Assembly (NCBI GenBank): GCA_029260965.1
Contig: JAJDCG010000001.1
Span: 248,012 to 312,011 of the forward strand
DNA from: Candidatus Levyibacteriota bacterium
GTDB lineage: Bacteria > Patescibacteriota > Microgenomatia > Levybacterales > UBA12049
Length of the DNA: 64,000 nt
Direction of reading: 5' to 3'
Part shown: positions 1,058 through 58,609 of the stretch, in pieces
Layout of the letters: every line of letters begins with the position of its first letter
How positions within the stretch are numbered: the first letter of the stretch is position 1
The notes under the pieces: generated by a model
What the model was told of the DNA's origin: nothing
Databases searched by the model: none
Seen by the model: the letters and a program-made list of their open reading frames with translations, nothing else
Position numbers and translations under genes: made by a program

Positions 1058-1831
1058 CTATCTGCAAGTTCCGTCTCTTCCACCTGAATTCGATTTGCAA
1101 GTTTGTCCAGAAGGACATTGATCATTTCCTGCAACATCACATGATTTCCTGGTAGGAACACCCTGATCACTTTCTAATCCTGGTACTTTCAGTATGTCAA
1201 TGCCGATTAGCTGTAGGAATAGAAACGAGAAGATAAGAAACATCAGGCCGACTATTGCAGCAATCATTTGCTCTCTTGCTTGTTGAATCTGGTCAGGATT
1301 ACCTCTGGAGGTCATTATTTTGTATCCTGCGATCATTATCAGTAATATCGCTATTCCACCAGCCATGCTTATCAGGAATCCAAATACACTAACTACAAAA
1401 TCACTTGGTTCAGTCTTGAATGTTCCAAGAGCTGTATTGAATTCTGCGCAAGTACCGTTTTCGAATTTTTTACAGGGTGGAGATGGGGCAGGTTGTTGTC
1501 GGTCTGTGCTGTCAATTTTTTTGCATGTTCGGTAGGTGTCGCCACCCTCTGCTACACAGGTTAAGCCTTTTTTACAGACCTCAATTCCTCTTCCCCCGAT
1601 TGTATCGCCATTGTCGCAACGTTGGCCCTCGCTTCGGCTAAACTCAGGCATGCATACAGCGCTACCTCCACCGAGTCCCAGTCCTGGATCAACACAGGTT
1701 AGTCTTTGGTCTGGGTCGCAATGATTAAGAATTCCACAGGTTTGTCCTGGACCAACTGCTGCTGCTGAAGCTGGATTTGGAGTAGTGATTATTAAGATCA
1801 GGAAAGAGAAGAGAAAAAGAATCTTTTTCAT
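1058..1831 (-). CDS. Secreted Cys-rich protein with a two-TM VirB2/TrbC-like (T4SS-pilin-like) core
   Basis: Signal peptide MKKILFLFSFLILIITTPNPASA, then a Cys-rich N-terminal region of about 12 Cys. The core FVVSVFGFLISMAGGIAILLIMIAGYKIMTSRGNPDQ...IVGLMFLIFSFLFLQLIGIDILKVPG is clearly homologous to the 7943..8314 protein. A Cys-rich C-terminal tail follows. Confidence 0.5.
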   Translation of the reverse strand: MKKILFLFSFLILIITTPNPASAAAVGPGQTCGILNHCDPDQRLTCVDPGLGLGGGSAVCMPEFSRSEGQRCDNGDTIGGRGIEVCKKGLTCVAEGGDTYRTCKKIDSTDRQQPAPSPPCKKFENGTCAEFNTALGTFKTEPSDFVVSVFGFLISMAGGIAILLIMIAGYKIMTSRGNPDQIQQAREQMIAAIVGLMFLIFSFLFLQLIGIDILKVPGLESDQGVPTRKSCDVAGNDQCPSGQTCKSNSGGRDGTCR

Positions 1832-7815: not shown

Positions 7816-7942
7816 TACGTTTTTTTAGCTTTGGCGTTTGAGATTTTGAGGTGATATATAATTGAATTTTCTATTTGATTTATTGGGATTTTGTGTGATA
7901 CTGTTTAAGTATGGCGGTTTCTTCTTGACCTGCCTTTGTCAT

Positions 7943-8314
7943 ATGAGGAAATTATCTCTTTTAGGAGTTGTTTTATTTACACTCTTTTCATTTTTTACTT
8001 TACCCACTGTAGCGTATGCCCAAAGTTGTGATGTGGGGTATGTAGCAACAGATTTTGGTTGCTGGCCTGGTAATCCGATTGGTTTTGTGCAGGAGTTTTA
8101 TAGCGTAGGCCTTGCCTTTGTGGCAGGCATTGCGATCCTAGCGCTGATTGCTGGAGGCTATACGATCATGACCTCACAGGGTAATCCTGAGCGTGTAAAT
8201 GTAGGAAAAAGCTGGATATTTTATGCAATCGTTGGGCTGCTTCTAGCAATTTTTGGATATGTGTTTATAGAGGTTGTGGTTGTAGATGTTTTGAAAGTTC
8301 CTGGATTTAGCTAA
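7943..8314 (+). CDS. VirB2/TrbC-like (T4SS-pilin-like) small secreted two-TM protein
   Basis: Signal peptide MRKLSLLGVVLFTLFSFFTLPTVAYA and a Cys pair (SCDVGYVATDFGC). The core GLAFVAGIAILALIAGGYTIMTSQGNPER...IVGLLLAIFGYVFIEVVVVDVLKVPGFS is a paralog of the 1058..1831 core. Start chosen at the ATG at 7943; the track ORF begins at 7862. Confidence 0.5.
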   Translation: MRKLSLLGVVLFTLFSFFTLPTVAYAQSCDVGYVATDFGCWPGNPIGFVQEFYSVGLAFVAGIAILALIAGGYTIMTSQGNPERVNVGKSWIFYAIVGLLLAIFGYVFIEVVVVDVLKVPGFS

Positions 8315-8319
8315 GTTTT

Positions 8320-10821
8320 ATGAAAAAAATACTGTCCATTTTTTTGTTTTTTATTTTTACGATAGGAATATTTTTAACACCTGGATTGGTGCATGCTCAA
8401 AGCATACCGCCAGGTCTGCAGCTTGATACCATATCAAATCCAGGCGGTGAGGGTACTCGCTGGACACCTGATCCTGAAGTAACCTTTGTAGGACGTAATG
8501 CTGCGAGGTCTGGACTTCTTTTGGATTGGACACTCAGGAATTATAATTGGGTTTGTGTTTCAAAGGCCGATCCTAGCGCAAGGGTTTGTGACAATAGCAA
8601 TAACCCCTTGCGGACTTTTTGGACAAGGATTGTTTTTAATATCGTAACCCCACTTCTTTTCTTGGTAGTTATGGCAGCTGCCATAATTCTTATCGTTACT
8701 CGTGGGCGTTCTATTACTATAATGCGTTTTTTGCCAAGATTTATCATTATTGTTTTATTGGTGGCATTTTCGTTTTCTCTTGTAAGTTTTATTTATCAAT
8801 TTACAGATGCGATACAAGGCTTTTTCTTGGCGCCACCTGATGCAACTAGTACAAATCCAGGAGACCCTTGTCCTCCGAATTGTATTTCAAATGCAGATCT
8901 TCTTTTTGTGGGTTGGCCATATGAAGAATTTGTGGGGCTTCGAGCAATTGGCGATGACAAGTCAGAGGCTATATATACAACTCTTCTTCTGACTAAATTG
9001 ACAGCTTTTACGTATTATGTGATGTGGGGAATGCTTACACTTAGGAAGATAATACTATGGTTTTTTATAGTTGTATCACCTGTTTTTCCTCTTCTCCTTT
9101 TTTTCTATCCTGTACGCAACACAGCAAAAATTTGGATAGGTGAATTTTTTCGTTGGACATTATATGGACCTCTTTTTGCAATTTTTCTCAGCGGATTGGT
9201 TTTTATGTGGACTCAAAAGATACCTGTTGATATATCGACAGATATCGGAGTAAGGTCGCAAACTCCGACAACGACTAATTTGGCAGGTGAAACAGTACCA
9301 ATTATTTTCCCTACAGCTGTAAATATACTTCTGGGAGGCCCCCAGCAATTCGTGGAACCAGCTAATAATGTCAATAAAACTGAAACTTTTGCCCTTTATA
9401 TTGTCGCACTTCTTATGCTTTGGGGAGTTATTATTATGCCGTGGATACTTCTAAGAATTTTTCTTAGCGAAGCAGCAGGTGTTGGCAAGGTGGGGAGTGC
9501 TGCGGTCAATCAATTCGTGGGTAAGGTTAGGAATAAAATTGGACCATCACCAGGTAAGTCTCCTGATGGTGGGGGTAGGGCACTAAACCTGCCGTTTGCA
9601 AAGAAGTTTAGTCCACCGACTCCCCCAGCAGGTGGTGCTGGTCTGGCACGTGAAATACCACGTGATGTATCTGAGTCAAGAGCTGCAAAGAATGTATATA
9701 TGCCTTCTGCTCAGGTAAAAGCACAGGTATTGACTGCTGCAAACGTGAATCTGCCTACTTTGCGAGACATAGCAAAATATGATAGTTCGTTAATGAATCG
9801 TGACCAACAAGGGGAGATAACAAGGCTCCGTCAAAACTTGTCAAAGATTGCGAATCCTGCATCTAGCTCAACTTCAACAGAGCGTGAAAAGTATACACAA
9901 ATAAGAGAAAAGCTCACGCGGGAGAGTATGAGTGGAAATATACTGGCAACCTCTATTCTTAATGCAGCAAATAGCGCTACAAGGCATACAGCTCAGGTAA
10001 CTACTACACAGGTAAGAAGTATGCTTTCACAAGTTGCGAACCCTCAGTCAGCTACAACTCCAGTCATCAACAGGGAAAAACTGGAAAGCATGAATAGATC
10101 GCTCACGAAAGCAAAAGAAGAAGGCAATTCACTAGCTATTGCTGCGCTTTCAGTCACAGATAAGACGTCTGAGGCAGAGGTAGAGAAATTACAGGAGCGG
10201 ATCCGTACAGCTCGAGAAAAGCAGGATCCAATTGCATTGGAGCTTTCAGAATTAACAGATCAGAAGTCGTCGATTCCCGCAGTTAATCGTGTTCAGACGG
10301 TTAGTAGGGCAGATTATGAGGCAGTTAAAGATCTTTGGAAGGAGAACTATCACAATCAGGAGGTTCCTCAGCAGATGGGGTCACGTACAGAGTGGATTAA
10401 GAAAGATACAGAAAAAATAGAAAATATAATAAAGCTGCTTTCTTCGCAAAACGAAGAAGAAGTTACAAAAGGAGTTGGGGAAGTATCAGATATTCTTCCA
10501 TTCCTACTTGTTGGTGGATTTTCCCAGACAGAAATTGTTTCATACCTCAAAGCAAAAGAAGAGGCTGGACAAGAGATGGTTAAACAGCTCGAGAAGGAAG
10601 AAGAGGAGAAAGTTGTGGTAAAGGTAGGTAAAAAGACAGAGCAAAAAGAACAGGCTATGCACATGGAACAGACGATCCCTGATGAAGAAAATAAACCAGG
10701 TGGGACTAGTTCATCACCAGCTGAACCCGAGGATGCACTTGTGGGGGTAGAGAATCAGTCTCAAGAACAAAGGGATCAGGATAAACAATCTAACAATGAT
10801 GACAGTGCAGACAAAAAATAA
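8320..10821 (+). CDS. Large polytopic membrane protein (VirB6/TrbL-like?) with a pilin-like N-terminal module and a long coiled-coil/acidic C-terminal domain
   Basis: 833 aa. The signal peptide is followed by a Cys pair (VCVSKADPSARVC), then a hydrophobic helix plus TRGRS, resembling the pilin core. About five more TM helices follow, then roughly 430 aa of hydrophilic S/T/E/K-rich coiled-coil-like sequence. The gap to the upstream pilin gene is 5 nt. Confidence 0.4.
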   Translation: MKKILSIFLFFIFTIGIFLTPGLVHAQSIPPGLQLDTISNPGGEGTRWTPDPEVTFVGRNAARSGLLLDWTLRNYNWVCVSKADPSARVCDNSNNPLRTFWTRIVFNIVTPLLFLVVMAAAIILIVTRGRSITIMRFLPRFIIIVLLVAFSFSLVSFIYQFTDAIQGFFLAPPDATSTNPGDPCPPNCISNADLLFVGWPYEEFVGLRAIGDDKSEAIYTTLLLTKLTAFTYYVMWGMLTLRKIILWFFIVVSPVFPLLLFFYPVRNTAKIWIGEFFRWTLYGPLFAIFLSGLVFMWTQKIPVDISTDIGVRSQTPTTTNLAGETVPIIFPTAVNILLGGPQQFVEPANNVNKTETFALYIVALLMLWGVIIMPWILLRIFLSEAAGVGKVGSAAVNQFVGKVRNKIGPSPGKSPDGGGRALNLPFAKKFSPPTPPAGGAGLAREIPRDVSESRAAKNVYMPSAQVKAQVLTAANVNLPTLRDIAKYDSSLMNRDQQGEITRLRQNLSKIANPASSSTSTEREKYTQIREKLTRESMSGNILATSILNAANSATRHTAQVTTTQVRSMLSQVANPQSATTPVINREKLESMNRSLTKAKEEGNSLAIAALSVTDKTSEAEVEKLQERIRTAREKQDPIALELSELTDQKSSIPAVNRVQTVSRADYEAVKDLWKENYHNQEVPQQMGSRTEWIKKDTEKIENIIKLLSSQNEEEVTKGVGEVSDILPFLLVGGFSQTEIVSYLKAKEEAGQEMVKQLEKEEEEKVVVKVGKKTEQKEQAMHMEQTIPDEENKPGGTSSSPAEPEDALVGVENQSQEQRDQDKQSNNDDSADKK

Positions 10822-10867: not shown

Positions 10868-13800
10868 ATGTTTGGTACTCTTTTCAATCAAAAAAATGAT
10901 AATGAAGAAAAAAAACCTGTCCCATCCGGACAAGACGCCTCTGTTGCAACTGGGTCTACTCCCGTTCAGGATCAAACTACTCCTATTGGTCTAGCCAATA
11001 ATCAAGATCAGACATCTGCACAGTCGACAGAAAGTGTGGGAGTACCACAGTCGCAGGAAGGACAACAGCAAGCTCCATCAGGAACCCCAACCCAACCAGG
11101 CGCTGTGCAAAAGGACGATGATACAACTGGGGCGAATCCAGTTCAGAATCAGGGCATGTCTGCTCTTTCGCATCTTGATCCACGTGCAGCTCAGGTTTTG
11201 ACACATGCGCAAGAGGAAACCAAGCGTATCAAACAGCAGTTTATTGAGCCAGACCAGCTCCTTTTTGGACTTTTATATGATGATCAGATCTACAAGATTG
11301 CTGCCAAGTTCAAAGTAGATAGTGGAGTAATTTCAAAAGAAATCCAAGCTCGTGAGAAGATGGGAGCCTACCATGGCCAGCCAACCTTGAGTCAGATATC
11401 GCAACAAATTTTCGAACAAAGCTATAGAGATGCAAAAATGAGAGGTTCCAATTTTGTTTCGCCTGAGGACATACTTGTTACGCTTTGTGCGCCGACTACA
11501 GATACAGGAAAATATCTTGAATCTCGTGGATTTAAGAAAGAGGCTGTTGTAGACACTCTTTCAAAAGACACTAATCTCAACTACAGCAAGAAGACTGTAC
11601 TTGAAAAATACGGAACCGATCTTACTGAAGAGGCTCGCGCAGGCAGGTTGGATCCTATTGCTGGACGTGATCAGGAAATTGACCGTATGGTGCATATTCT
11701 TCTCAGACGCACCAAGAACAATCCGATTATTATCGGTGAGACCGGAGTTGGAAAGACAGCAATTGTTGAGGGGCTTGCGCAAGCAATAGCCAAGGGAGAT
11801 GTTCCACAAGAATTGAAAGATAAGAGAGTGTTTCAGTTGGATGTTGCATCTTTAGTTGCGGGAGCATCACATAGAGGAGAGTTTGAGGAGAGGCTCAGAA
11901 GTGTCATCAATGAAGTTTTGTCATCAAACAATCAGATAGTTCTTTTTGTTGATGAGGTCCATTCATTGCTGGGAACAGGAGAGGGTGAGGGAGTAAGTGC
12001 TGCCAATATTATAAAACCACATCTTGCCCGTGGTCATTTTCAGATGATTGGTGCAACCACAACCATTGAATACCGAAAAAACTTTGAGAAAGATAAGGCT
12101 TTTGAAAGGCGTTTTCAGCCTGTGACAGCAGAAGAGCCATCAGAGGAAAATGCATTTCTCATGCTTAAAGTTCTCAGACCAAAGTACGAGAAATTCCACA
12201 AAGTAACCATACCTGATGAAACGCTCAAGGAATGTGTCAAGCTTTCCAAAAAATACATTGGCGAGCGATATCTTCCTGATAAAGCAGTTGATTTACTTGA
12301 CGAGGGCGCATCAGATGTGAAGCTGATGGCGGATGAGGGAAGACGTAAAGATACAACCCTGAGAAAAGAAGACGTAGAAAAAGTTGTAAGTAACTGGACA
12401 GGAATTCCAATAACAAAGCTGACAGAGGATGAATCTGAGAAACTTCTTAAACTTGAAGATAGAATTCATCATCGCTTGATTGATCAGATGGAGGCAGTGG
12501 TTGCTGTTTCTGAAGCTGTAAGACGCGGAAGGATAGGTCTGGCATCTGCTAATCGGCCGATTGCATCATTTGTCTTTCTCGGTCCAACAGGTGTTGGTAA
12601 AACAGAGCTTGCAAAGACTTTGGCTGAGCTTCTTTTTGGACGTGATGATGCTATGGCAAGACTGGACATGTCTGAATACATGGAGAAACATGAGGTTGCT
12701 AAATTAATTGGTGCGCCTCCTGGTTATGTTGGTTATGAAGAGGGTGGTCAGTTAACAGAGGCGGTTCGGAAAAAACCATATTCAATAGTTCTTCTTGATG
12801 AGATTGAGAAGGCACATCCAGATGTGTTTAATATTCTTCTTCAGCTCCTGGAGGATGGGAGGCTTACTGATAATAAAGGTAACACAATATCATTCAAAAA
12901 CACCATTGTTATTTGTACGTCAAATATCGGAAGTTCCATGATTCAGCAAGAACTTTCAAAAACAGATAAAAACGTGAAACATACACCAGAACAAAATGCT
13001 GAATCGTTTAAGCATCTTCAGGGATTAGTAAAGGAGGAGCTTATTAAATTCTTCAGGCCAGAGCTTCTTAACCGATTTGATGATGTTGTTATTTTTAAGC
13101 CCCTTTTGCAGGAACATATGGCAGGTATAGCAAGGCTTGGGATTAAAAAAACCGCTGGTCTTCTCAAGGAGCAGGGTTTCGTTCTTCAGTGTACAGAAAA
13201 AGCTATAGCACAGCTTGCTAAAGATGGTTATGATCCTGTCTATGGTGCGCGTCCATTGAGAAGACTTATCCAGACAGCAGTTGAAAATCCTGTGGCTATT
13301 GCTATTATTTCCAAGAAATTTGCGGTAGGAGACACAATAGTTGTTGATTATGATTCAGGTAAAAATGAGTTTGTATTTAAAAAGGGTGCATCAGCGAGTG
13401 AGAATATAAATCCGAAAAAAATTCTTCTTGAAATTGTCAACCCAGGTGATATTAAAGACAAAGCGAAGAAGGATCAATTTACCAAACTTCATGACGATTT
13501 GGTCGTAAAGAGTAAGGGAGGAGATAGTCTCGCAAGTTCTATTATGTCTATAACTCCTGATACGTCTGATGAAACAATTAAAGAGATTCTTGATAATTTG
13601 GAAAAAGCAAAACAAGGTGGAGACATGCTCTTTACTGATGTGTTGACAGCAGTTAATGCTGAAATGGCTGAGGAGGCAGAGGAGGCGCATGAGGCAGAAC
13701 CTGTGACTAAATTTAAAAAACTTCTTCAGCAGGTCATAAACCCTCTTTATTTGTCCGCACCAGGAAACAAAGAGAGGTTTAGTGCTCTTTATGACAAGTT

Positions 13801-14578
13801 ATCTGTTGCCAATCAGGAGGGCAATAAGTTGGCAGGTTCAATACTGGCGATAACTGACATTACTTCAGATGAAGACATAGCTGTTATCAAAAAGCAACTT
13901 GAGGAGGCAAAAGCACAAAATGATCCTTTTGCAACAGAAGTTCTTGCAGTTCTTGAAGCAGGCACAAAAACGGATGAGGTTGCTAAGTTGCGTGAGACTG
14001 TAGGATTTATCGTGAACCCGATTACTGCTGAAAGCTCAGCAAAGAAAACACAGTATGATGAGATTAGGGTAAAGCTAGCGGCGCTTTCTGAGAAAGGAAA
14101 TGCTGTGGCATCTGCTGTTATGGGAGTAAGTGATGCAACTACCGATGATCAGTTGATTCTTATTAAGACTCAGATTGAAAACGGTAGAAATAGTAATGAC
14201 GAGGCAGCTCTCCTTCTTTCAAATGTCTTGTCTATGTCACCAGCGGTTCAGGATGCGCAGGTGCAGATGGCCAAACAGAATACAGGTGCACAGCCGAAGG
14301 ATCCTAATCAGGCATATCCATTTGGTCCAGGGCAGCAATCTCCGCAGCCGATTCAGCCTTCTGTTGCTGGAGCTGCTCAGACTATGCCTGAGGGGGGTGC
14401 TTCTGCGCGGGTTCAGACTGATGGACAATCAGTAGGTGGTCCTACATTTCAGTCGCCTGTTCAGGATGGTGGAGCAGTTGCACAAGGGGCAGGCATGGCA
14501 GCTCTAAATGAGCAGTTAGAGAGGGATAATCAGATTATAAATAATCAACTTGAATCCGAAGGCGAAAGTATCGCGTAG
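10868..14578 (+). CDS. clpC: ClpC-like Hsp100 AAA+ ATPase with a Q/T-rich N-terminal region and a roughly 400-aa C-terminal extension
   Basis: Clp_N repeat (LFGLLYDD). D1 carries Walker [16 protein letters not shown] and Walker B LFVDEVH. A short ClpC-type linker follows. D2 carries [17 protein letters not shown] and [28 protein letters not shown], with the sensor-2 GARPLRR. Beyond the usual ClpC end there are three tandem repeats of about 90 aa and a G/Q/P-rich tail. A GAGGT RBS lies 10 nt upstream. Confidence 0.85.
13415..14255 (+). repeat. Three tandem repeats of about 270 bp (about 90 aa) coding within the ClpC-like C-terminal extension
   Basis: The repeat units [10 protein letters not shown]...[43 protein letters not shown]...[33 protein letters not shown] and [10 protein letters not shown]...[32 protein letters not shown] share the pattern [IV]NP...G..LA.S[IV]..[IV][ST]D.TSD[ED].I. 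Confidence 0.7.
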
Positions 14579-14863: not shown

Positions 14864-15193
14864 ATGGGAAGTTATGCATTTTTACCGTTGGTTTTTTTGA
14901 GGTTTTGGTTTTTTGAGGCGCCATTGGGTTTGATAAAATATTTTTTATCTTTGAACACAGCTTTTTTTGAGCTTTTCTCATTGCCTCTTTTGATAAGAAC
15001 CTATTTCCAGCCACTTAAAAATGAGTATAGGAAGGGGCTGGTTGGTTTTTCCCGCAGTATGGGTATTGCGGTCAAGACTGTTCTTATTTTTGTCGATTTG
15101 TTAATTTTTATTCCACTTTTGATTTTTGAGACTGTGGTAATAGTTTTGTTTTTTCTATTTCCGATAATTACAGTGGCGCTGTTGTTTTATTGA
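14864..15193 (+). CDS. Small hydrophobic membrane protein
   Basis: 109 aa with three to four TM segments. Its stop codon overlaps the start region of the downstream Clp paralog. Confidence 0.35.
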   Translation: MGSYAFLPLVFLRFWFFEAPLGLIKYFLSLNTAFFELFSLPLLIRTYFQPLKNEYRKGLVGFSRSMGIAVKTVLIFVDLLIFIPLLIFETVVIVLFFLFPIITVALLFY

Positions 15194-15201
15194 CAGAGAC
15201 T

Positions 15202-17610
15202 ATGAAGGAGTACGCAAAAATTCACTATTTTTATACGAGAGCTATCACGAGAACTATACGTCTTTTTGTGTTTTCGATCCTAGCACTCTTTGTCTATCAG
15301 GGGGTTGAGAGTGCAGGTATTTCTAAAATTGTTGTTTTTCTTTTTAATGTTTTTGTGATGAATGAGGTATTTTTTCGCTACAAAATAGGACGCATAATGC
15401 CAGAAATGAAGCTTGAAAATAATAATGGAAAAGACATTTATAAATCGTTCACTCTACAGGCAATGTCACCATTTGTTACGGAAGGAAATCTGGAGGGGGT
15501 AATAAGCAAAATATTAGAGAAGCCAAAGATTAAAAAAATTATGCAGAAGATCAATCTGACTGAAGAGGAGTTGGTGTTTCCTGAAATTGATAAACAAACC
15601 CTCGCAAAAAGCGCTTATGATGCTGCAGTTACATTTGGGGCTAAGTATGTGACCACAGTTGATGTTTTTGCAGCCTATTTCTTCCTCATAGAAAGAGACA
15701 ATAAGTTACTTTTTGCGAAACAGCTAAAGCTGGATGATCTTATTAATATATTGCATTTTATAAGAGTGAAATATCCCGATGAAGAAGATCCAAAAAAAAG
15801 AAGAATTAGTATGTCTGGGTCTGGAATGGGAGAGGCTCTGGTTACAGGATGGACACCCGAGACCAAAAATTATACAAATAATTTTACCTCAACAGCACTC
15901 AAAGAAAGACCTAGCCTCAAAGGGCGGGAGGGGGAATTCAGAGGAATGCTTGAGGGTCTAATCAAATTTGATTCAAACAACGTTCTTTTGGTGGGTGATA
16001 TAGGATCAGGTAAAGAGAACTTAGTTAGAGCACTTGCATATTATAGTTTTGAGGGTAGTATCGGAAAATATTTGAATCATAAAAAAGTTCTGTACTTGAT
16101 GGTTGGGGCACTCACCGCTGGTGCTGTTAATAGATCTGATCTTGAAACAAGGCTACAGAGCATTATTGCAGAGGTGACTCATGCCCAAAATGTAATTCTC
16201 TACATTCCAGAATTCCAAAACATACTAGGTGGCACATCATACGGCATAGATCTGTCGGGAGCACTTCTTCCATATCTTAAATCAGGCGCGCTTCCTATTG
16301 TTGCGAGCATGACAACTGGTCAATACAAGTCTTATATGGAAAAAAATCCCCTGAGAGAAGCCTTTACAATCATTCATCTTAATGAGCCTGATGCTGATAT
16401 GGCAATTCAGATGGTGTTATCAGACGCAGAAAAAATTGAGAGGAAATACGGTGTAATACTCAGTTATCTCAGTATTGCAAGCGCAGTTGAGCTCTCGAGT
16501 CGTTTTCTTCAGGACCAGGTGCTTCCGGGTAGCGCCATATCACTTCTGTCTTCAGTTGCCAATAAAGTCTCCAGTTCAAAAGATGCTCCCAAATACGGTA
16601 AAACAAAAAAGAAAATAGTTCTTGAGGAACATGTTGTAGCAGCAGTAGAAAACGAGGCTAATGTTTCGATCGTTCTCCCGACAGGCGATGAAATAGAGCT
16701 TCTTTTACACTTGGAAGAAAAGCTTCACGAGCGCGTAATTGGCCAAGATGCAGCGGTAGAGGCAATATCAGAGGCTATGCGGCGTGTTCGGTCAGGTATA
16801 AAAACTAGTGAAAAACCTGTATCCTTTCTTTTTCTTGGTCCAACAGGTGTGGGTAAGACAGAAACAGCCAAAGCGTTGTCAGACTTTTATTTTGGTGGTG
16901 TGAAGAACATGACCAGGCTTGATATGAGCGAGTATGCAGATGAGGCAGGAGTGCGTCGTCTTCTTGGAGCGCCCCCTGGCGCTGGTACGGAGCGTGGAGA
17001 ACTTACAGACAAAATTCATGACCATCCATCAAGCCTAATTCTTTTGGATGAATTTGAGAAAGCAAATTCAGAGATTCATAATCTATTCTTGCAGGTTTTG
17101 GATGATGGCAGACTAACAGACAATAAAGGGCAGACAGTCAGTTTCCGAAACGCTATTATTATCGCGACGTCCAATGCTGGATCTGAATTTATACGTGAGC
17201 AGGTAGAGAAAGGGTTGGGTCTGGATAAGCTTTTTCAGCAAAAGCTTCTTGATCAGCTTCAAACAACTGGTATTTTTAGACCAGAGCTGTTGAATCGGTT
17301 TGATGACGTAGTTACATTTAAGCCACTTGATGATAAGCAGGTTGAGGATGTGGTTCGGTTAATACTTGCAAACTTAAGCCACAATATGGCTGATCAGGAC
17401 ATAGTGGTAAGTTTTGATGATGCGGTGGTAGAGAAAATTTCCAAGGAAGGTTACGACAAGGAGTTTGGTGCTCGCCCCCTCAAACGTTTTATTCAGGATA
17501 ACATAGAGGATATGATTGCTCAAAAACGTTTAACTAGAGAAATTGATAGAGGAAAAAAAGTCAGTTTCTCAGTTGATGGGACTGGAGCTATGAGTTTGGT
17601 TATTTCTTAA
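15202..17610 (+). CDS. Membrane-anchored Clp/Hsp100 paralog with a degenerate D1 ATPase module and an intact D2
   Basis: Two N-terminal TM helices (LFVFSILALFVYQGV and ISKIVVFLFNVFVMNEVFF) and a Clp_N-like repeat. At the D1 Walker A position the sequence is GDIGSGKENL, which lacks the Thr/Ser. At the D1 Walker B position it is ILYIPEFQNI in place of hhhhDE. D2 is canonical: [50 protein letters not shown]. The track ORF starts at a TTG at 15190; the ATG at 15202 is preferred. Confidence 0.75.
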   Translation: MKEYAKIHYFYTRAITRTIRLFVFSILALFVYQGVESAGISKIVVFLFNVFVMNEVFFRYKIGRIMPEMKLENNNGKDIYKSFTLQAMSPFVTEGNLEGVISKILEKPKIKKIMQKINLTEEELVFPEIDKQTLAKSAYDAAVTFGAKYVTTVDVFAAYFFLIERDNKLLFAKQLKLDDLINILHFIRVKYPDEEDPKKRRISMSGSGMGEALVTGWTPETKNYTNNFTSTALKERPSLKGREGEFRGMLEGLIKFDSNNVLLVGDIGSGKENLVRALAYYSFEGSIGKYLNHKKVLYLMVGALTAGAVNRSDLETRLQSIIAEVTHAQNVILYIPEFQNILGGTSYGIDLSGALLPYLKSGALPIVASMTTGQYKSYMEKNPLREAFTIIHLNEPDADMAIQMVLSDAEKIERKYGVILSYLSIASAVELSSRFLQDQVLPGSAISLLSSVANKVSSSKDAPKYGKTKKKIVLEEHVVAAVENEANVSIVLPTGDEIELLLHLEEKLHERVIGQDAAVEAISEAMRRVRSGIKTSEKPVSFLFLGPTGVGKTETAKALSDFYFGGVKNMTRLDMSEYADEAGVRRLLGAPPGAGTERGELTDKIHDHPSSLILLDEFEKANSEIHNLFLQVLDDGRLTDNKGQTVSFRNAIIIATSNAGSEFIREQVEKGLGLDKLFQQKLLDQLQTTGIFRPELLNRFDDVVTFKPLDDKQVEDVVRLILANLSHNMADQDIVVSFDDAVVEKISKEGYDKEFGARPLKRFIQDNIEDMIAQKRLTREIDRGKKVSFSVDGTGAMSLVIS

Positions 17611-24971: not shown

Positions 24972-26267
24972 ATGGATCCGACTGCCCAGACACCTGTTAG
25001 TGACTTAAATCAGCAAGGTTCTGACGACCAGGTAGAGCAGGCAAGGGGAGATGTGCCGATGATGGGACAGATCGGTCAGAGCGTGACTGATGCTGAGGCA
25101 CTTAAGGCGGTTGATGATGTAAATAAGTCTCAGATTATTCACAACGACACAACACAGAGCGAAACACAAAATACCCAGGGGCAACAATCTATTACTGATC
25201 ATGGAAAATCTTCTGATCAGATTCGCGCATTGGGTGAGAAAATAGAAAATGCAGCAATACCGCAGGAGTTTAAGGCAGAGTTACTAGACCGTATCGCGCG
25301 TCTTGGGATGATCCGTTCGAGTGCTGGCTTTCTTTCTAGTACATATATCATGGAGTATGAATCAACTTCTCGCTTCGTGAATTGGGTTGTAGAGATGCCA
25401 TGGGACAAAAAGAGTGATGATTTACTGGATCTTAGTAAGGCCAAGGAAATAATGGATAAGAATCATCATGGTTTAGAACCTTTGAAAAAAAGAGTTCTTG
25501 AATATATAGCATCTCTCATGCTTAATATTAAAAATTATGGTAGTGAGGCACATTTAGTAAAGGCACCAATTCTGTGCGTGGTGGGATTGGCTGGTACTGG
25601 TAAGACTACGTTTGCTCGTTCTATGGCTGAGGCTTTGGGTCGCCAGTTTGAGCGAATACCGTTTGGTGGCATGGCTGATTCGAGAGTTTTACGGGGCCAG
25701 TCGAGATATTTTCCAGATGCAGAGCCTGGGCAGATTATAAAAAAGATGGTTCATGCAGGAACAAATAATCCTGTGATTCTTCTTGACGAGCTGGATCGTG
25801 TCACCGACACTTCACGGGCTAACATAATGGGTGTTCTTATTGAAATACTTGATCCAGAGCAAAACGTAAGATTTACAGATCATTATGTTGATTATCCTTT
25901 TAGTCTCCAGAATACACTTTTTATCGCAACAGCCAATAATGTCTCGAGTGTCTCGACCGCTGTTTTGGACAGACTTGAAATAATTCAGATGCCTTCATAT
26001 AATGATGAGGAGAAAATTGCCATTGGTCGAGACTTTGTATTACCTAAAACTATGAAAATGACAGGACTTCTCCAGAATCAGATGACGATCGCACCAGAGG
26101 TTTGGGGACCATTAGTCAGACCGCTTGGTTATGATCCTGGTATTCGTGGCCTTGAGAGAATTATAACAGGTATGTGCCGTAAGGCAGCAACTGTTATAAT
26201 TTCGGGTCAGGCACAGACTGTTTCGATAACCAATGAAAACGTGAAGCAGTTTCTGCCAGAATGGTAA
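24972..26267 (+). CDS. Lon-like AAA+ ATPase module lacking both the LON N-domain and the S16 peptidase domain
   Basis: Strong similarity to the Lon ATPase region: GLEPLKKRVLEYIA, Walker A VGLAGTGKTTFARSMAEALGRQF, ILLDELDRV, EILDPEQNVRFTDHYVDYPFSLQNTLFIATANN and LDRLEIIQMPSYNDEEKIAIGRDFVLPK. The ORF stops at the end of the alpha-helical subdomain (GIRGLERIITGMCRKAA...). The N-terminus is Q/T-rich low complexity. Confidence 0.7.
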   Translation: MDPTAQTPVSDLNQQGSDDQVEQARGDVPMMGQIGQSVTDAEALKAVDDVNKSQIIHNDTTQSETQNTQGQQSITDHGKSSDQIRALGEKIENAAIPQEFKAELLDRIARLGMIRSSAGFLSSTYIMEYESTSRFVNWVVEMPWDKKSDDLLDLSKAKEIMDKNHHGLEPLKKRVLEYIASLMLNIKNYGSEAHLVKAPILCVVGLAGTGKTTFARSMAEALGRQFERIPFGGMADSRVLRGQSRYFPDAEPGQIIKKMVHAGTNNPVILLDELDRVTDTSRANIMGVLIEILDPEQNVRFTDHYVDYPFSLQNTLFIATANNVSSVSTAVLDRLEIIQMPSYNDEEKIAIGRDFVLPKTMKMTGLLQNQMTIAPEVWGPLVRPLGYDPGIRGLERIITGMCRKAATVIISGQAQTVSITNENVKQFLPEW

Positions 26268-34086: not shown

Positions 34087-34815
34087 TTATTGATCCAGTC
34101 TTGCTTTTATGATAAGTCTTTTCCAGATGGTGCCGGGGGGTGTACAGGTGATGATCGTGATATAGGAGTTGTCAAAATTTTGTGTGAAATATGATGTATC
34201 TTCAGCATCAATTACAGATATGTCAATTATTGAATAGTTATATTTAGTATTATTAACTGTTGCGATGATTTTATCTTTTATCTTAACTTCATGGATTTTT
34301 GCAAAAATAGTCCGATAATTTTCTGGATCATAGAGCTGGGGTAGGGTTGAATGTCCGAAGATTGCTGCAGTTCCCTTATTACCTGGCACAGCAGTACCAG
34401 GAAAGTGAACCAGGTTTTCGTCAACACGAGTGTTGGTTGTTGACACCACAGCATTGTTGATGTTTATTTTGGGAATAGAGATTGTATAAGACGAGATTTT
34501 GTCGTTAAATGTTTCAGTGCTTGTTTGTTCTTGTGCATTTGCGCTTGGTAGCCAGTTGCTGGATTTGCCACTGAGGGAATCTGCAGTAGACTGTATGATC
34601 CCTGATAAGTAGTTTTCTGAAATTACTGTATTTTGAGGTATAGGTGATGCATAGTTGTTGTTGGCAAAGACACGCTTGGTATAAAGCTCCCAGGAGATAA
34701 TAGGAAAAAAGATATAAAGACCGAATAGAAAGGCAAGTGCTGAAATTATCAGTCCAGTGAGGCGGATTTTTTTTCTGTTTTTTACTTTGTCTTTTTTGGT
34801 GTAAACTTGTCCCAT
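34087..34815 (-). CDS. Sortase family transpeptidase
   Basis: N-terminal membrane anchor, the catalytic His context (AIFGHSTLPQ) and the conserved Cys in TIITCTPPGT. Confidence 0.7.
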   Translation of the reverse strand: MGQVYTKKDKVKNRKKIRLTGLIISALAFLFGLYIFFPIISWELYTKRVFANNNYASPIPQNTVISENYLSGIIQSTADSLSGKSSNWLPSANAQEQTSTETFNDKISSYTISIPKININNAVVSTTNTRVDENLVHFPGTAVPGNKGTAAIFGHSTLPQLYDPENYRTIFAKIHEVKIKDKIIATVNNTKYNYSIIDISVIDAEDTSYFTQNFDNSYITIITCTPPGTIWKRLIIKARLDQ

Positions 34816-34818
34816 AGA

Positions 34819-37092
34819 TTATTCTGCTTCAACAACAATATTGATTTTGTTTGGAAGGCTAGGAAAAAAATATGAAGGTATAAAGATACCAGGTGAATAT
34901 CTTATTTTGCTGTCTGATACTTGCGGTAAGTTTGAGAGCATGCTGGTTGCTTCTTTTTTAGATTTTCCTTTGAGTGACGAGGTGATATCGTCAGATTTAA
35001 TTTCAGGAAGGACCCCAGCCTCAGCAATCAGCTTAGCTGATACTTCTTGGTCATCGCGCTTTTTTAGATTTTCTGTTTTTACTTTCAAGGTATCATTTGC
35101 AATCTCAATGTTTTCTGATCCACCTGATTTGAGAAGTGTTTTTGTAAAATCTTCCAGATCCTGATTTCTATAAACCATTTCTTCAAAAACAACACTACCA
35201 GTAAGTTTTATGGTGCTTGATTCATCACCTTCATCTTTATCAAAGCTAGGTTTTGTTATTTTAGCTGAGAGGATTGTGGGAATGAGCGTTTCTCCAGTAT
35301 TTGCTTTTTTGGATAATTCTTCTGATGCCTGTTTCTCGAGTTTTTTTACCAAATCCGTTTCTAGTCTGGATAAATCATCAGCGTCAACAACTGTTACTGT
35401 TTTTTTACTGCCTCCCGAAAAAGCATCATCATTGCGGGCAGCTAGTTCTGAATTCCCACCAATTGAAAATTTAGTTCCTGATGGTAGGTTTGATTCTTGA
35501 CCTATGTCGCGAGCGGTAACTTTTACATCAGTAGTGCCAGGTTTAGTTCCAGAAAATATATCTCCTGATGCTGAGGCAACAGTGATGTTGTCATCAAGGG
35601 TGAAAACTAGGTCATTACTTGACTCAATAGTGGTCCCACTATTGATAGTGACTTTGCTTTTGGAATTGTTAAAAATCGTTACAGTACCTTTGGCTTTATC
35701 GCCGACATCTTTTTTACCAGTTGCTTTTGTTGATACATCTCCTGACACGGTTGTTGATATTGATTTAGCAGCTATTATATTTTGAGAGAAGTCATTTCCA
35801 CCCGAGACAGAAAAGATCACATTCTCTTCTTCTTTGATTATTTCGGGTTTTATTGATAGTGCAATCTCTGCAGTTACAACATTTTGGTAAAAGAGCCATG
35901 ACCCAATTCCGAGAAGTATGATTACACCTGCGACAATTCCCATGAGTTTTGTTTTGGAGCTTTTTTTGAGCAATGAAGGCAATCCAGAAAATTTGGATAA
36001 AGAAAGTTTTTTAGATAGTTCCCTTAATTTTTGAGTAATAGATAGGAAAGCTGTAAGAATTGCCTTCTTCTTTACTGCTTGTTGCTCTTGTTTTTCATCT
36101 TCTGATGTTTCATCATGGGAATTATTTTGTCCCAGATCAACCTCCGGAGAATCTTCCTCAGGAATAAGCGATATTGTTTCTTCTTTTTTTAATTTTGCAG
36201 CATCTATGTTTTCTACAAATCCAAAATTATCACCATTATCTGGTGTGGATGGTTTATCGTTTTTGATGTCTGGGCTATTATCTGCGTCCTTATTAGTTTC
36301 AGTTATGTCAGTTTTGCTGATTCCAAGTATTTCAAATCCCATCTGTTCACCTGCACCAAATGTAACTGCTTTACCATCAAAACCTTCGGGTAAAGAAGTG
36401 ATCTGGGGAATATGTAGAAAAGGGATGTTTTTATTCCATTCGTGGTTTGTCAATTCCTGGGCGAGTTTTTCGGATTTTTTGGTCGGGAATAGTACAATTC
36501 TTGCAGGAAGGGTCGGAGCTGTGAAGTGTCGCAGGAGCTTGTCGGTTGTTTCTGCAAATGAATCACCAGTTAGTTCTCCTTTTTTTGTTTCAATTATTTT
36601 TCCTGCCCTAAACAGACTTACGTTTATAGATTTTTCGCCTGCCTCGATCATTACTGCAGAGAGTGGAGCTCCTTCTTCTTCACCAAGAAAGTGTGCAATT
36701 GCTTCGCTGACTACCATAAATCCGATTGGTTTCATATCAAGTTTATCTGAGGCGCGTTTCAATTTGGCGAGATTTTCTTTTTTTATTTTCTTGGTTTCTT
36801 TGTCAACCCAATCTTCTTTTACTCCAAATACTGTTTTTTGTGTTTCTATATCAGGTGGTAAAACTTCTTCTGCTTTGGAGATTGTTTTATCAAGGATTTT
36901 TACAAATTCTTCGTGTGTTATTTCATCAAGTGGGGTTGTGAACTCCTCACTATTTTGATTCAGGACTTTTAGCTTGCTTTCGTGCTCTTTGAGTATTACA
37001 GCTTCGGCTCTTTCGTCAGTAAGAAGTAGTGCGAGAAAATATTCGTTTTCTTCTTTATTTTTCTTTTTAATGAATGGAATAGGCAGCTTCAT
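34819..37092 (-). CDS. Bitopic membrane protein: N-terminal actin-like (FtsA/PilM-like) cytoplasmic domain, one TM helix, S/T/G-rich extracytoplasmic domain
   Basis: The N-terminal roughly 260 aa show an FtsA/PilM-like pattern (EYFLALLLTDERAEAVILKE ... GFMVVSEAIAHFLG ... AVMIEAGEKSINVSLFRAGKII). The phosphate-1 motif is degenerate (LTDE in place of DIGT). The TM helix is LMGIVAGVIILLGIGSWLFY. About 370 aa of repetitive S/T/G/D-rich sequence follow. Confidence 0.3.
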   Translation of the reverse strand: MKLPIPFIKKKNKEENEYFLALLLTDERAEAVILKEHESKLKVLNQNSEEFTTPLDEITHEEFVKILDKTISKAEEVLPPDIETQKTVFGVKEDWVDKETKKIKKENLAKLKRASDKLDMKPIGFMVVSEAIAHFLGEEEGAPLSAVMIEAGEKSINVSLFRAGKIIETKKGELTGDSFAETTDKLLRHFTAPTLPARIVLFPTKKSEKLAQELTNHEWNKNIPFLHIPQITSLPEGFDGKAVTFGAGEQMGFEILGISKTDITETNKDADNSPDIKNDKPSTPDNGDNFGFVENIDAAKLKKEETISLIPEEDSPEVDLGQNNSHDETSEDEKQEQQAVKKKAILTAFLSITQKLRELSKKLSLSKFSGLPSLLKKSSKTKLMGIVAGVIILLGIGSWLFYQNVVTAEIALSIKPEIIKEEENVIFSVSGGNDFSQNIIAAKSISTTVSGDVSTKATGKKDVGDKAKGTVTIFNNSKSKVTINSGTTIESSNDLVFTLDDNITVASASGDIFSGTKPGTTDVKVTARDIGQESNLPSGTKFSIGGNSELAARNDDAFSGGSKKTVTVVDADDLSRLETDLVKKLEKQASEELSKKANTGETLIPTILSAKITKPSFDKDEGDESSTIKLTGSVVFEEMVYRNQDLEDFTKTLLKSGGSENIEIANDTLKVKTENLKKRDDQEVSAKLIAEAGVLPEIKSDDITSSLKGKSKKEATSMLSNLPQVSDSKIRYSPGIFIPSYFFPSLPNKINIVVEAE

Positions 37093-54845: not shown

Positions 54846-56786
54846 ATGCCAGAAGCAGGTGCTGATTTTCTCAAAAAAAAATACGATCTTCACAATAGCC
54901 CAGAAGTTTTAAGCGCTGCAAGGAGAACGGAAATAAAAACGGGAAGAAGAGTGCTGCAATCTCCTGAACCACGTATCCAAAACTATCTTGCCCGCTTCAA
55001 AGAAATTGTTGATGAGAAAGATGAGGACAAGAAAAAAGAAAATATCCAAGCTCTGAAAAGAGTTCTTCTTCCCAAGTTCGTGACCAAATTTAAGGATATC
55101 CCCGATAGTTACTGGAAGCTGCAAGAGCGAATACTCCGTGAACGCGGACAACAGGGAGATTATGACCGTTTCTCAGATGAAGAGAAGAATAAGGCAAAAC
55201 ATGAGATCGCCGATGGTCTCTTGTCTGATCAGCAATCATCACTTGAGCAGTGGATTGATTATCTTGCATCGGATGACTCTTCATACATTCCTGATCATAT
55301 AAAGTATTGGACATTTAGAAGCGTTATTGGCCTTGCTGAGTATGACAAAGACAAGAAAGAGTTTCCTGAAAGATCAAAAGGAACAGTTAAGATGTTTCCT
55401 GATATAAATCAAGAAGCCCTTTCTACCATGATTGATTGGTTTTTGAAGAATCAGAAAGGGGAACCCGTTACTCTTGAGGGATATGAAAGGGACCTGACTG
55501 ATGAGCAGAAAAACCAAGCCAGACAATTTATCTCGCAGGAAAATTTTGCCAAGCTTTATGGTTTTGTCAATGAACTCATCAGGCCAATTCCAGAGCATCT
55601 TATTCCAATAACCAAAGGGAAATGGGTCAAGTATGAGCAGGGCTCGGATCACACTCCATTGGTGCAGTCAATACGCGGACGGGGAACAGGCTGGTGCACG
55701 GCTGGTGAAAATACCGCTAAAACCCAACTGGGAGGTGGAGATTTTCACGTTTTTTATTCCAACGATGATGATGACAATCCCACAATTCCCCGCATTGCAA
55801 TCCGTATGGAGGGGGAAAAGATTGCTGAAGTTCGTGGAATTGCAGCCAAACAAAACCTTGATCCTTACATGACGGAAATACTTGAGAAAAAGCTTGATGA
55901 GTTCCCTGATAAAGACAAATATCTCAAAAAAGAACATGACATGAGACAGTTAACAGAGATTGATAAAAAAGTAAAAAGAGGGGAAGCGCTTGGAAAAGAT
56001 GAACTTGTTTTTCTTTATGAAGTAGATTCCAAAATTCAAGGATTTGGGTATCAAAGCGATCCTCGCATTAACGAATTGAGAACTGGTAGAGATATGCACG
56101 AGGATATGCTGACTATTTTTGATTGTACAGAGGATCAAATTGCTCATGCAACAGACCAGATGAATGAAAACACCAAAGCCTATGTTGGTAAGCTTACTCC
56201 TGGAATTTTTGATCAAATTCAAAAATACAACATTGAGCATGTCTTTACTTCTTTTCCTGAAGGAAGAATACGGCTTGAGTCGCTCACAATTGGTGGTAAG
56301 AGCGTAAAAGAGCTTCAAGAAGAAATGCGAAGTGAAAATATAAATATTAGTGGTTACGTAAGAGATATGCTGGAAAGTCCTGATTTTGTGACGCAACAAA
56401 ATAAGGAAGACATTGATCTGGTTCGTTTGAAAGTTGGGGATCTTGGTTTGGGAGGAAGTCCCACGACTGATCAACTATATGAAAAAGCAAAAGAACTCGG
56501 GTTAGATTTGTGTCCTGCGGAAGTTGGACCGCAGATGCGGCTGACATATAAGGATCAACCCCTTTACGAATATTTCAATATAGGAATGAAACAAATTGCC
56601 GATTCCGATGGCTGTCCGGATGTCTTCACGCTGGATCACGGTGACGATGGTTTGTGGTTGAGTGACTATTGGGCAAGGCCGGAGGACGGGTGGGCGCCTG
56701 TCGATGAGTTTGTTTTTCGTCTCCGGCCGAGCGGAAGCGAGGCAAGCAAGTCTCCTTTGAAATTTTGGCCCTTTAGACATTCTTGA
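54846..56786 (+). CDS. DGR target protein: 646 aa, no signal peptide or TM, with a C-terminal variable region
   Basis: The C-terminal segment ...DSDGCPDVFTLDHGDDGLWLSDYWARPEDGWAPVDEFVFRLRPS is encoded by the VR. Many of the varied codons correspond to AAT/AAC/AAG codons in the TR. The N-terminal roughly 580 aa have no recognised domain. Confidence 0.7.
   Translation: MPEAGADFLKKKYDLHNSPEVLSAARRTEIKTGRRVLQSPEPRIQNYLARFKEIVDEKDEDKKKENIQALKRVLLPKFVTKFKDIPDSYWKLQERILRERGQQGDYDRFSDEEKNKAKHEIADGLLSDQQSSLEQWIDYLASDDSSYIPDHIKYWTFRSVIGLAEYDKDKKEFPERSKGTVKMFPDINQEALSTMIDWFLKNQKGEPVTLEGYERDLTDEQKNQARQFISQENFAKLYGFVNELIRPIPEHLIPITKGKWVKYEQGSDHTPLVQSIRGRGTGWCTAGENTAKTQLGGGDFHVFYSNDDDDNPTIPRIAIRMEGEKIAEVRGIAAKQNLDPYMTEILEKKLDEFPDKDKYLKKEHDMRQLTEIDKKVKRGEALGKDELVFLYEVDSKIQGFGYQSDPRINELRTGRDMHEDMLTIFDCTEDQIAHATDQMNENTKAYVGKLTPGIFDQIQKYNIEHVFTSFPEGRIRLESLTIGGKSVKELQEEMRSENINISGYVRDMLESPDFVTQQNKEDIDLVRLKVGDLGLGGSPTTDQLYEKAKELGLDLCPAEVGPQMRLTYKDQPLYEYFNIGMKQIADSDGCPDVFTLDHGDDGLWLSDYWARPEDGWAPVDEFVFRLRPSGSEASKSPLKFWPFRHS
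56595..56729 (+). repeat. DGR variable repeat (VR)
   Basis: 135 bp, colinear with the TR at 57064-57198. About 20 substitutions fall at TR adenine positions (A to G, T or C), plus one T-to-G difference. All other positions are identical. Confidence 0.8.
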
Positions 56787-56902
56787 ACCTTTGACTCTTT
56801 GATACTTTGACACTTCGTTTCTTTCCAAATTTTTGTTATACTTTTCTTGGAGAGGTTTTATGCAAATGGCTACGGCTTTTGCAGACTTTTCCGATGAATA
56901 CA

Positions 56903-56931
56903 AAATTGAGAGCGCGGAAGGCTATGGTTTT
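56903..56931 (+). terminator. GC-rich hairpin downstream of the DGR target gene (CGCGGAA-N10-TTCCGCG)
   Basis: A 7-bp perfect stem with a 10-nt loop, about 120 nt after the target stop. The T-tract following it is weak. Confidence 0.2.
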
Positions 56932-57063
56932 CCGCGGAGGATTTGTATCTTATCTTAAAAAACAGAAGAGACTTGGTGTTTTGTACTGGCTGATTTTAGA
57001 TCACAAGTAAAATACAGCTAAATGTTTTTTTGCATAAGCAGTGAGATAGATGGTGCAAGGCGC

Positions 57064-57198
57064 ATTACCGATTCCGATGGCAATCCGAATGTCTTCAAAC
57101 TGAATCACAATGACGATGGTTTGTGGTTGAATGACAATTGGGCAAAGCCGAAGAACGAGTGGAATCCTGACAATGAGTTTGTTTTTCGTCTCAGAAAG
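57064..57198 (+). repeat. DGR template repeat (TR)
   Basis: Adenine-rich at the variable codon positions (AAT/AAC/AAG). It shares the 3'-terminal motif AGCGAGGC with the VR-flanking sequence, which may be IMH-like. The track ORF 57022..57246 is just the TR read in frame and is not a gene. Confidence 0.8.
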
Positions 57199-57219
57199 TG
57201 CCTTTCTTTTCCGCCCGCA

Positions 57220-57543
57220 TCAAGCGAGGCGGTTTTTCTTATATGAATTTTCCGAACTTCTTTTCCATCCCCCAAGCATTTTTCCAATTTCATCAAGTTT
57301 TAGGCCAACCACCTCGTAATGTTTGTGAGAAATTATTTTTCCCTCCCACGCTACGGAAATAAGAAACTTAAGAACATCCAGCGTCAAAATACATTCTGAA
57401 ATTTTTTCCGTTTTGTCTGATTTTTGGGTAAAATATGTAGTGTAGGAAAGCTCAAGCAGGTCAAGAAATTTATTTTCAATTCTTGAGCCGATCGTGAAGC
57501 GTGCACCTTTTGCAATATGAGGCGAAATATTCATCCAGATCAA
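57220..57543 (-). CDS. avd: Avd-like accessory variability determinant (four-helix-bundle, TIGR02436-type)
   Basis: 107 aa. The C-terminal region ...LKLDEIGKMLGGWKRS matches the L.EIGKML.GLI ending of Avd / 23S-rRNA-IVS four-helix-bundle proteins. It lies between the TR and the RT on the opposite strand. Confidence 0.55.
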   Translation of the reverse strand: MIWMNISPHIAKGARFTIGSRIENKFLDLLELSYTTYFTQKSDKTEKISECILTLDVLKFLISVAWEGKIISHKHYEVVGLKLDEIGKMLGGWKRSSENSYKKNRLA

Positions 57544-57556
57544 ATATCCCTCTTTG

Positions 57557-58609
<1,053 letters not shown>

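Follow-up and report, generated by a model that had tools for sequence, protein, structure and literature searches.

Hsp100 motors gain specificity through accessory domains. Human CLPB/Skd3 is an Hsp100-type motor fused to ankyrin repeats, a helical-repeat protein-interaction module. VirB6 of A. tumefaciens crosses the membrane through five transmembrane (TM) segments, with its N-terminus outside and its C-terminus inside. In Anaplasma, "extended VirB6" proteins laden with repeats have been described (PMC7648143, PMC3556328). A 2025 survey of type IV secretion systems (T4SS) in Patescibacteria, in which no Clp or AAA+ partner is mentioned, found few VirB6 homologues in Microgenomatia, "suggesting extreme sequence divergence" (PMC12102498). 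Here we describe a gene from an uncultured Candidatus Levyibacteriota bacterium, one of the ultra-small bacteria of the CPR (10868..14578, plus strand) that encodes an Hsp100-family AAA+ unfoldase with a C-terminal repeat module. It lies in a 64,000-nucleotide stretch of contig JAJDCG010000001.1 (positions 248,012 to 312,011), called the window below. The same repeat is present in the VirB6-like membrane protein encoded by the adjacent upstream gene. Tentatively, and with a probability that we put a little below even, we read the module as a tether that would hold a ClpP-independent unfoldase at a VirB6-like membrane complex. An undescribed C-terminal array common to a motor and its VirB6-like neighbour is an unusual, and testable, instance of a possible wiring of a motor to a membrane machine.

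The reading frame runs for 1236 aa without interruption. Pfam recognises Clp_N at aa 114-161, AAA at 287-399, AAA_lid_9 at 425-498, AAA_2 at 563-739 and ClpB_D2-small at 746-826, leaving aa 1-113 and 830-1236 without any Pfam match; NCBIfam agrees, and the family assignment is shared by the PDB relatives. The protein starts with a conserved ten-residue peptide (10868..10897), followed by a low-complexity linker rich in Q, T, G, P and S (aa 11-100, 10898..11167; over aa 1-100 the composition is Q 16%, T 11%, G 10%, P 9% and S 9%). The Clp N-domain comes next (aa about 102-240, 11171..11587), the alignment with the ClpC N-domain starting at aa 102. It is followed by the first AAA+ module with its lid (D1, 11588..12367), where a short link replaces the M-domain, and by the second AAA+ module with D2-small (D2, 12425..13345). 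Both Walker A/B pairs are intact (GETGVGKT and VLFVDE in D1, GPTGVGKT and IVLLDE in D2), as is the D2 pore loop, GAPPGYVG. Beyond D2 lie repeat 1 (aa 847-946, 13406..13705), repeat 2 (aa 947-1042, 13706..13993) and repeat 3 (aa 1043-1135, 13994..14272), all delimited by blastp and by an AlphaFold2 (AF2) model. The protein closes with a tail rich in Q, G, A and P (14273..14575), which makes up the last 101 residues (aa 1136-1236; Q 16%, G 14%, A 13%, P 10%) and ends in a conserved peptide, finishing in ESEGESIA, that is common to locus L002 and cluster P0121. An earlier note on this DNA, written from the letters alone, had remarked on a Q/T-rich N-terminal region and a G/Q/P-rich tail; the composition bears this out, and both are traits of the whole orthologue family and not of the window protein alone.

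The three repeats, about 95 aa each, align pairwise by blastp at 27-40% identity (E 1e-10 to 1.7e-17), a similarity far beyond chance, and the motif [IV]NP...G..LA.S[IV]..[IV][ST]D.TSDE recurs in every copy, which confirms the three tandem repeats of about 90 aa that the earlier note had described. At the DNA level, Tandem Repeats Finder detected no tandem repeat in the gene. The duplication is therefore old, and a recent one was rejected. A profile of the three repeats also matched two copies in the upstream open reading frame (ORF) at 8320..10821 (E 7e-19), a relationship that had been missed before.

A five-repeat profile was then searched exhaustively against 1.84 billion representative proteins at a threshold of E 1e-3. 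The repeat was carried by 136 clusters, 52 of them at E ≤ 1e-30, with up to 20 copies per protein. By local classification, about 115 of the 136 are homologues of the upstream membrane protein, which share a conserved N-terminal TM domain, 1 to 20 repeats and a conserved C-terminal domain. Hsp100 fusions or their fragments account for about 14 clusters, a recognisable Hsp100 core being present only in P0018 and P0017, and the remaining short hits are fragments of one or the other family. A third carrier family, which could have been a shared partner, was rejected since the unclassified matches proved to be such fragments, and P0133 was discarded as a spurious low-complexity match. Among these 1.84 billion proteins, the repeat thus occurs in two families only, VirB6-like and Hsp100.

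Known domains do not account for it. Pfam, PDB sequences and PDB folds gave nothing consistent for the repeat, and NCBIfam gave no match; with the C-terminal 407 aa as query, the PDB sequence search returned only a chance match, lambda CII, at E 1.3. A word-indexed homologue search with aa 840-1140 also returned nothing, but it missed the source protein, which is present in the collection, so that this negative is unreliable and is superseded by the exhaustive profile search. In the searchable literature, no description of the repeat or of a VirB6-Hsp100 pairing was found. An AF2 model of aa 843-1141, built on a 15-row alignment, is all-helical and confident (mean pLDDT 85.7, pTM 0.54). In each modelled unit, helices of 19, 7 and 16 aa are followed by a long one that continues into the next unit; the geometry between units is less certain. 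By these comparisons the repeat is an undescribed, predicted helical domain common only to the Hsp100 and its VirB6-like neighbour, and the earlier view of residues 840-1236 as an unusual, lineage-specific extension holds good.

Eleven loci carry repeats on the Hsp100: the window itself (L001), L002-L006, L009, L011, L014, L029 and L052. In each, an insert of 2 to 4 units separates D2 from the P/Q tail. By position, the units of the 11 genomes are orthologues of one another (H1 to H4), repeats 1, 2 and 3 of the window corresponding to H2, H3 and H4 of the four-unit relatives. A given Hsp100 unit is 50-60% identical to the unit at the same position elsewhere, against 30-47% to any VirB6-like repeat, and its best VirB6-like match never comes from its own genome. 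Positional orthology, together with the lower identity to VirB6-like repeats, points to one old capture of a four-unit array in one subclade, then vertical descent with loss of units and no gene conversion. In the closest pair, L004 and L005, dN/dS was 0.036 for the repeats and 0.020 for the AAA+ core, with synonymous sites near saturation; the array is kept under purifying selection.

The protein had been called ClpC-like. It is indeed an Hsp100 unfoldase whose best solved match is ClpC of S. aureus (E 1.2e-203), followed by ClpB of E. coli (E 2.6e-198), but the label is imprecise. ClpC and ClpB each align in two pieces, whereas ClpA, which has no middle domain, aligns in one. Residues 423-467 of ClpC, the M-domain where MecA and McsB dock, have no counterpart, and residues 411-534 of ClpB, the middle domain, are skipped. 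In the alignment with S. aureus ClpC, the sequence VKHTP occupies the site of the AGF loop by which ClpC docks on ClpP, and the D1 pore loop, a segment of 11 residues, has His at the position of the Tyr of ClpB and ClpC. With ClpC the protein shares an N-domain and two AAA+ modules whose Walker A and B sites are, judging by their motifs, functional; it has neither the M-domain nor the [IVA]G[FL] loop in D2. It lacks the long M-domain (about 120 aa) that couples ClpB to DnaK and scores 863 bits against a cut-off of 1232 with the ClpB model TIGR03346. Like ClpA it has no M-domain, yet the IGL loop for ClpP is missing and the ClpA model TIGR02639 gives 688 bits, below its cut-off of 993. The TssH/ClpV model TIGR03345 gives 663 bits against 885, and no type VI secretion genes were found among the window ORFs scanned. 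As no equivalog cut-off is reached, and both the M-domain and the ClpP loop are absent, we class the protein by sequence as a distinct Hsp100 lineage, apparently ClpP-independent, and not as a strict ClpC. A ClpP gene, for which the earlier note had proposed to look, was not found within the 64-kb window by scans of its ORFs or by tblastn with an E. coli ClpP query.

These features extend to the 63 syntenic orthologues. The D2 pore loop is invariant (63/63), and the D1 pore loop reads as one 11-residue sequence, with His in place of Tyr, in 57 of them. The link from D1 to D2 is 30 aa long in 42 of the 55 orthologues that could be scored, and an [ILVMA]G[FLIM] motif is absent from the ClpP-loop region in 44 of 45. 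All have a P/Q/S-rich N-terminal region of 43-163 aa and a P/Q/G-rich C-terminal tail. The N-terminal peptide, with the consensus M[FL]GN[LI]F..KK, is near-invariant and present in essentially all 63 (within L002-L081), ahead of a disordered linker of 40-160 aa. At the other end, conserved peptides are clade-specific: DGTQMQP, YNYSGIP..RPINYIAPQ..EEIE and GMAALNE.LE.D. Speculatively, the terminal peptides look like tethered docking motifs, and could be universal docking elements.

The gene upstream (8320..10821, plus strand) encodes 833 aa. Repeat matches, TrbL matches in its family, hydropathy and loop charge identify its product as a candidate divergent TrbL/VirB6-like polytopic membrane protein, laid out as a signal peptide, a TM domain, a linker, two repeat copies and a conserved C-terminal domain. 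The two copies, a short one (aa 497-561) and a full one (aa 562-648), lie at 9808..10263 on the plus strand and were located by the profile and in an AF2 model of aa 440-833. The Pfam TrbL model (PF04610) matches 17 of 25 members of this upstream family, with a best E of 4.4e-6 and one member above the gathering score, and the matches cover residues of about 100-276 against model positions of about 3-184 of 215. The family profile found no solved VirB6 among PDB sequences. The family, comprising the window protein and those of L002-L081, is a candidate for the divergent VirB6 that is scarce in Microgenomatia.

Six hydrophobic segments follow the signal peptide of the VirB6-like protein, the third being weakly hydrophobic. 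Over the family, the loop after the last TM segment has a mean of 9.0 K/R versus 4.1 D/E, and net negative charge is found both in the N-terminal stretch behind the signal peptide and in the long loop behind hydrophobic segment two. Were the third segment counted into the long loop, the protein would be N-out with five TM segments and C-in, matching the canonical VirB6 topology. From these loop charges, the C-terminal extension with its repeats probably faces the cytoplasm.

Directly upstream again lies a VirB2-like pilin candidate of 150 aa (7862..8314, plus strand), with sub-threshold matches to T4SS_pilin in Pfam (E 2.3e-4, below the cut-off) and to the pilin-like family Mbov_0395 in NCBIfam (E 3.6e-4). 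Another pilin domain is found elsewhere in the window: a 257-aa protein encoded at 1058..1831 on the minus strand, divergently beside hrcA, has at its C-terminus a T4SS_pilin domain that exceeds the Pfam cut-off (32.4 bits, E 9.7e-8), and longer minus-strand ORFs with a pilin domain also lie upstream in several related loci.

Gene order was examined by searching the VirB6-like family in one genome per species. This gave 80 loci, 70 of them informative for the position of the Hsp100 gene and 76 for the pilin. Most of the records are titled Candidatus Levyibacteriota, Microgenomates or Patescibacteria; many are titled 'uncultured Gammaproteobacteria', which we take as placeholder names. In 57 of the 70 loci an Hsp100 gene follows downstream of the VirB6-like gene at a distance of at most 300 nt, and in 9 others at up to 2.5 kb; a homologous pilin-like ORF lies directly upstream of the VirB6-like gene in 69 of 76. 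The order pilin-like, VirB6-like, Hsp100 is kept in 66 of the 70 informative Levyibacteriota loci, in genomes where the VirB6-like protein shares only 33-51% identity with that of the window. In the window, 46 nt separate the VirB6-like and Hsp100 genes; the gap holds an AGAGGT ribosome-binding site and no plus-strand terminator. Scans for promoters and terminators gave results at chance level.

Downstream of the Hsp100 gene come a small protein with two TM segments (14864..15193, plus strand), whose gene overlaps the next by 4 nt, and a second Hsp100 paralogue of 806 aa (15190..17610, plus strand), which Pfam and hydropathy describe as membrane-anchored by two N-terminal TM helices. Its D1 is degenerate (GDIGSGKE for Walker A, IPE at the Walker B position), and its D2 pore loop, GAPPGAGT, has no aromatic residue. 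The pair occurs in at least 40 related loci, usually after the main Hsp100, and is fused in L063. The paralogue may serve the main Hsp100 as an AAA+ partner that is anchored in the membrane and does not thread.

The earlier note had proposed that the extension docks an adaptor, a substrate or a partner protease. Docking is a plausible function, and the adjacent VirB6-like membrane protein, which has this repeat as its hallmark, is now a candidate partner for it. We propose that a stand-alone Hsp100, working without ClpP and made of an N-domain, D1, D2 with its intact threading loop, and disordered P/Q-rich arms ending in conserved peptides, would be held at the VirB6-like complex by its C-terminal module. 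The module is an array of small units, each of about 90 aa and with four predicted helices, whose native place is the C-terminal extension of the VirB6-like protein. The hexameric motor could be retained either by association of repeat with repeat or by a binding partner shared with the VirB6 repeats. Its D2 motor might then unfold, extract or remodel proteins, be they pilin subunits, secretion substrates or the complex itself. Going further by analogy, the Hsp100 may belong, as a dedicated part, to a minimal VirB2/VirB6-type envelope machine in Levyibacteriota, with a role like that of ClpV in type VI secretion, docking on a cytoplasmic platform of VirB6 repeats through the shared repeats, the terminal peptides or both, and supplying the power to extract pilin, unfold substrates or recycle the complex; this extended proposal we hold to be unlikely.

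Several observations weigh against such a tether. Synteny is kept although 52 of the 63 Hsp100 orthologues have no repeats, so that the repeats are not needed for the link between the two genes, and the module is an addition to that link and not its basis. The VirB6-like protein of the window does not itself match the TrbL model, and no VirB4 or VirD4 was found in the 64-kb window. If all six hydrophobic segments are counted, the C-terminal half of the VirB6-like protein would come to lie outside, which is the main uncertainty for the mechanism, and arrays of up to 20 units suit a variable stalk on the cell surface no less than a scaffold in the cytoplasm. The hrcA-grpE-dnaK-dnaJ operon, too, is conserved in the neighbourhood, so the Hsp100 could be just a general chaperone of the cell. 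On that explanation, which strikes us as somewhat unlikely, it would be a housekeeping chaperone beside the dnaK operon, the chief disaggregase or unfoldase of the lineage, and the module, captured from the neighbouring gene by local duplication, would now have a role that does not involve VirB6, such as self-association, control of a resting state, or adaptor or substrate binding. The operon lies 2-9 kb upstream in the window and within the locus in 55-62 of the 80 related loci, most orthologues do without repeats, and DNA is most easily captured from a gene next door. Self-regulation by accessory domains, such as the M-domain of ClpC, is frequent among Hsp100 proteins. It fits less well that the repeat is confined to two families, that the array was retained with unit-by-unit orthology under purifying selection, and that the three genes stay contiguous despite the divergence of the VirB6-like proteins; nor has the window Hsp100 the M-domain by which ClpB is coupled to DnaK.

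The topology of the VirB6-like protein bears on another explanation, in which its repeats form an extracellular stalk of variable length and never meet those of the Hsp100; the latter might, for example, recognise the unfolded VirB6 extension before export, or mimic it so as to bind an assembly factor common to both. Six hydrophobic segments behind a signal peptide would put the C-terminus outside, copy numbers from 1 to 20 among relatives are typical of surface proteins, and the units, joined by long helices in the AF2 models, look rod-like. The positive-inside rule favours a cytoplasmic C-terminus, however, the weak third segment may belong to the large outer loop, as in the canonical five-TM VirB6, and the same domain folds in an Hsp100 that has neither signal peptide nor TM segment; on balance we find a stalk quite unlikely. 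Docking of a partner protease such as ClpP by the extension, in place of the canonical loop, is very improbable. With that loop absent another route would be needed if a protease partner existed, but ClpP is not encoded within the window, most orthologues lack both loop and repeats, and the main home of the repeat is a membrane protein and not a protease partner. Protease docking in its usual sense, as the earlier note had allowed for, is unlikely with both the M-domain and the ClpP-docking loop missing. Finally, the chance that an assembly or frameshift artefact joined two genes is close to nil. Only the unusual length speaks for it, and we rejected it: the ORF is uninterrupted, as that note had already pointed out, an identical protein is encoded on a Logan assembly contig, the same fusion is present in 10 other metagenome-assembled genomes and in further clusters, and the array is under purifying selection.

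Whatever its function, the locus defines a conserved cluster of pilin-like, VirB6-like and Hsp100 genes, with a membrane-anchored Hsp100 paralogue downstream in many loci. The host phylum is uncultured and its members are likely epibionts, for whose lifestyle type IV-like systems are thought to be central. The cluster supplies a candidate VirB6 homologue for Microgenomatia, where it was found to be scarce (PMC12102498). If the coupling of motor and membrane complex is true, it would represent a new class of ATPase partner for type IV-like systems. Should the Hsp100 be a dedicated component, an unrecognised AAA+ energiser of a type IV-like system would have been found, and the 'missing' VirB6 of Microgenomatia identified. 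If there is no coupling, the locus still offers a clean example of a domain that one gene captured from its neighbour and then retained over the long term.

Elsewhere in the window, a diversity-generating retroelement of known kind spans 54846-58609. Its reverse transcriptase gene lies at 57554..58609 (Pfam RVT_1, E 1.5e-22), its template repeat at 57064-57192, and its variable repeat at 56595-56723, at the 3' end of an ORF (54846..56786, 646 aa) with no Pfam match; 19 of the 20 mismatches between the two 129-nt repeats fall on template adenines. A 431-aa protein encoded at 24972-26267 has an AAA domain and a Lon lid, with no Lon protease domain detected. Within 34087-37092 (minus strand), the gene for a 757-aa protein that gives a weak Baseplate_J-like match (E 2.2e-7) adjoins a sortase gene.

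Compared with described systems, the upstream protein is closest to the extended VirB6 proteins of Rickettsiales, such as VirB6-4 of Anaplasma, which likewise have a VirB6/TrbL core and, behind it, a long C-terminal extension laden with repeats, in a copy number that differs between strains or species (PMC7648143, PMC3556328). Their repeat family is unrelated, and the presence of the repeat on an adjacent AAA+ unfoldase as well, as seen here, is not reported for Rickettsiales. The Hsp100 shares with ClpC of S. aureus and B. subtilis the N-domain, D1, D2 and two intact ATPase sites; it differs in having no M-domain, VKHTP in place of the AGF loop and His for the D1 Tyr, and in its disordered arms of about 100 aa and C-terminal repeat array of about 290 aa. 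With ClpA it has in common the domain order, the lack of a middle domain and the alignment in a single stretch, but not the IGL loop for ClpP docking, and its 688 bits fall short of the ClpA cut-off of 993. CLPB/Skd3 resembles it in combining an Hsp100-type motor with a helical-repeat module, although the ankyrins are N-terminal, the AAA+ ring is single, and fold and position are unrelated to those of the repeats described here. ClpV/TssH, the Hsp100 dedicated to type VI secretion, likewise has two AAA+ rings, makes no use of ClpP and is encoded inside a secretion-system cluster, and a further trait that the two may share is recruitment to a secretion machine through an accessory domain. The context in the window is VirB2/VirB6-like, that is type IV and not type VI, and the TssH score is 663 bits against a cut-off of 885. 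ClpV keeps its middle domain and is recruited by its N-domain, whereas in the Levyibacteriota protein the candidate module for recruitment is the C-terminal repeat array.

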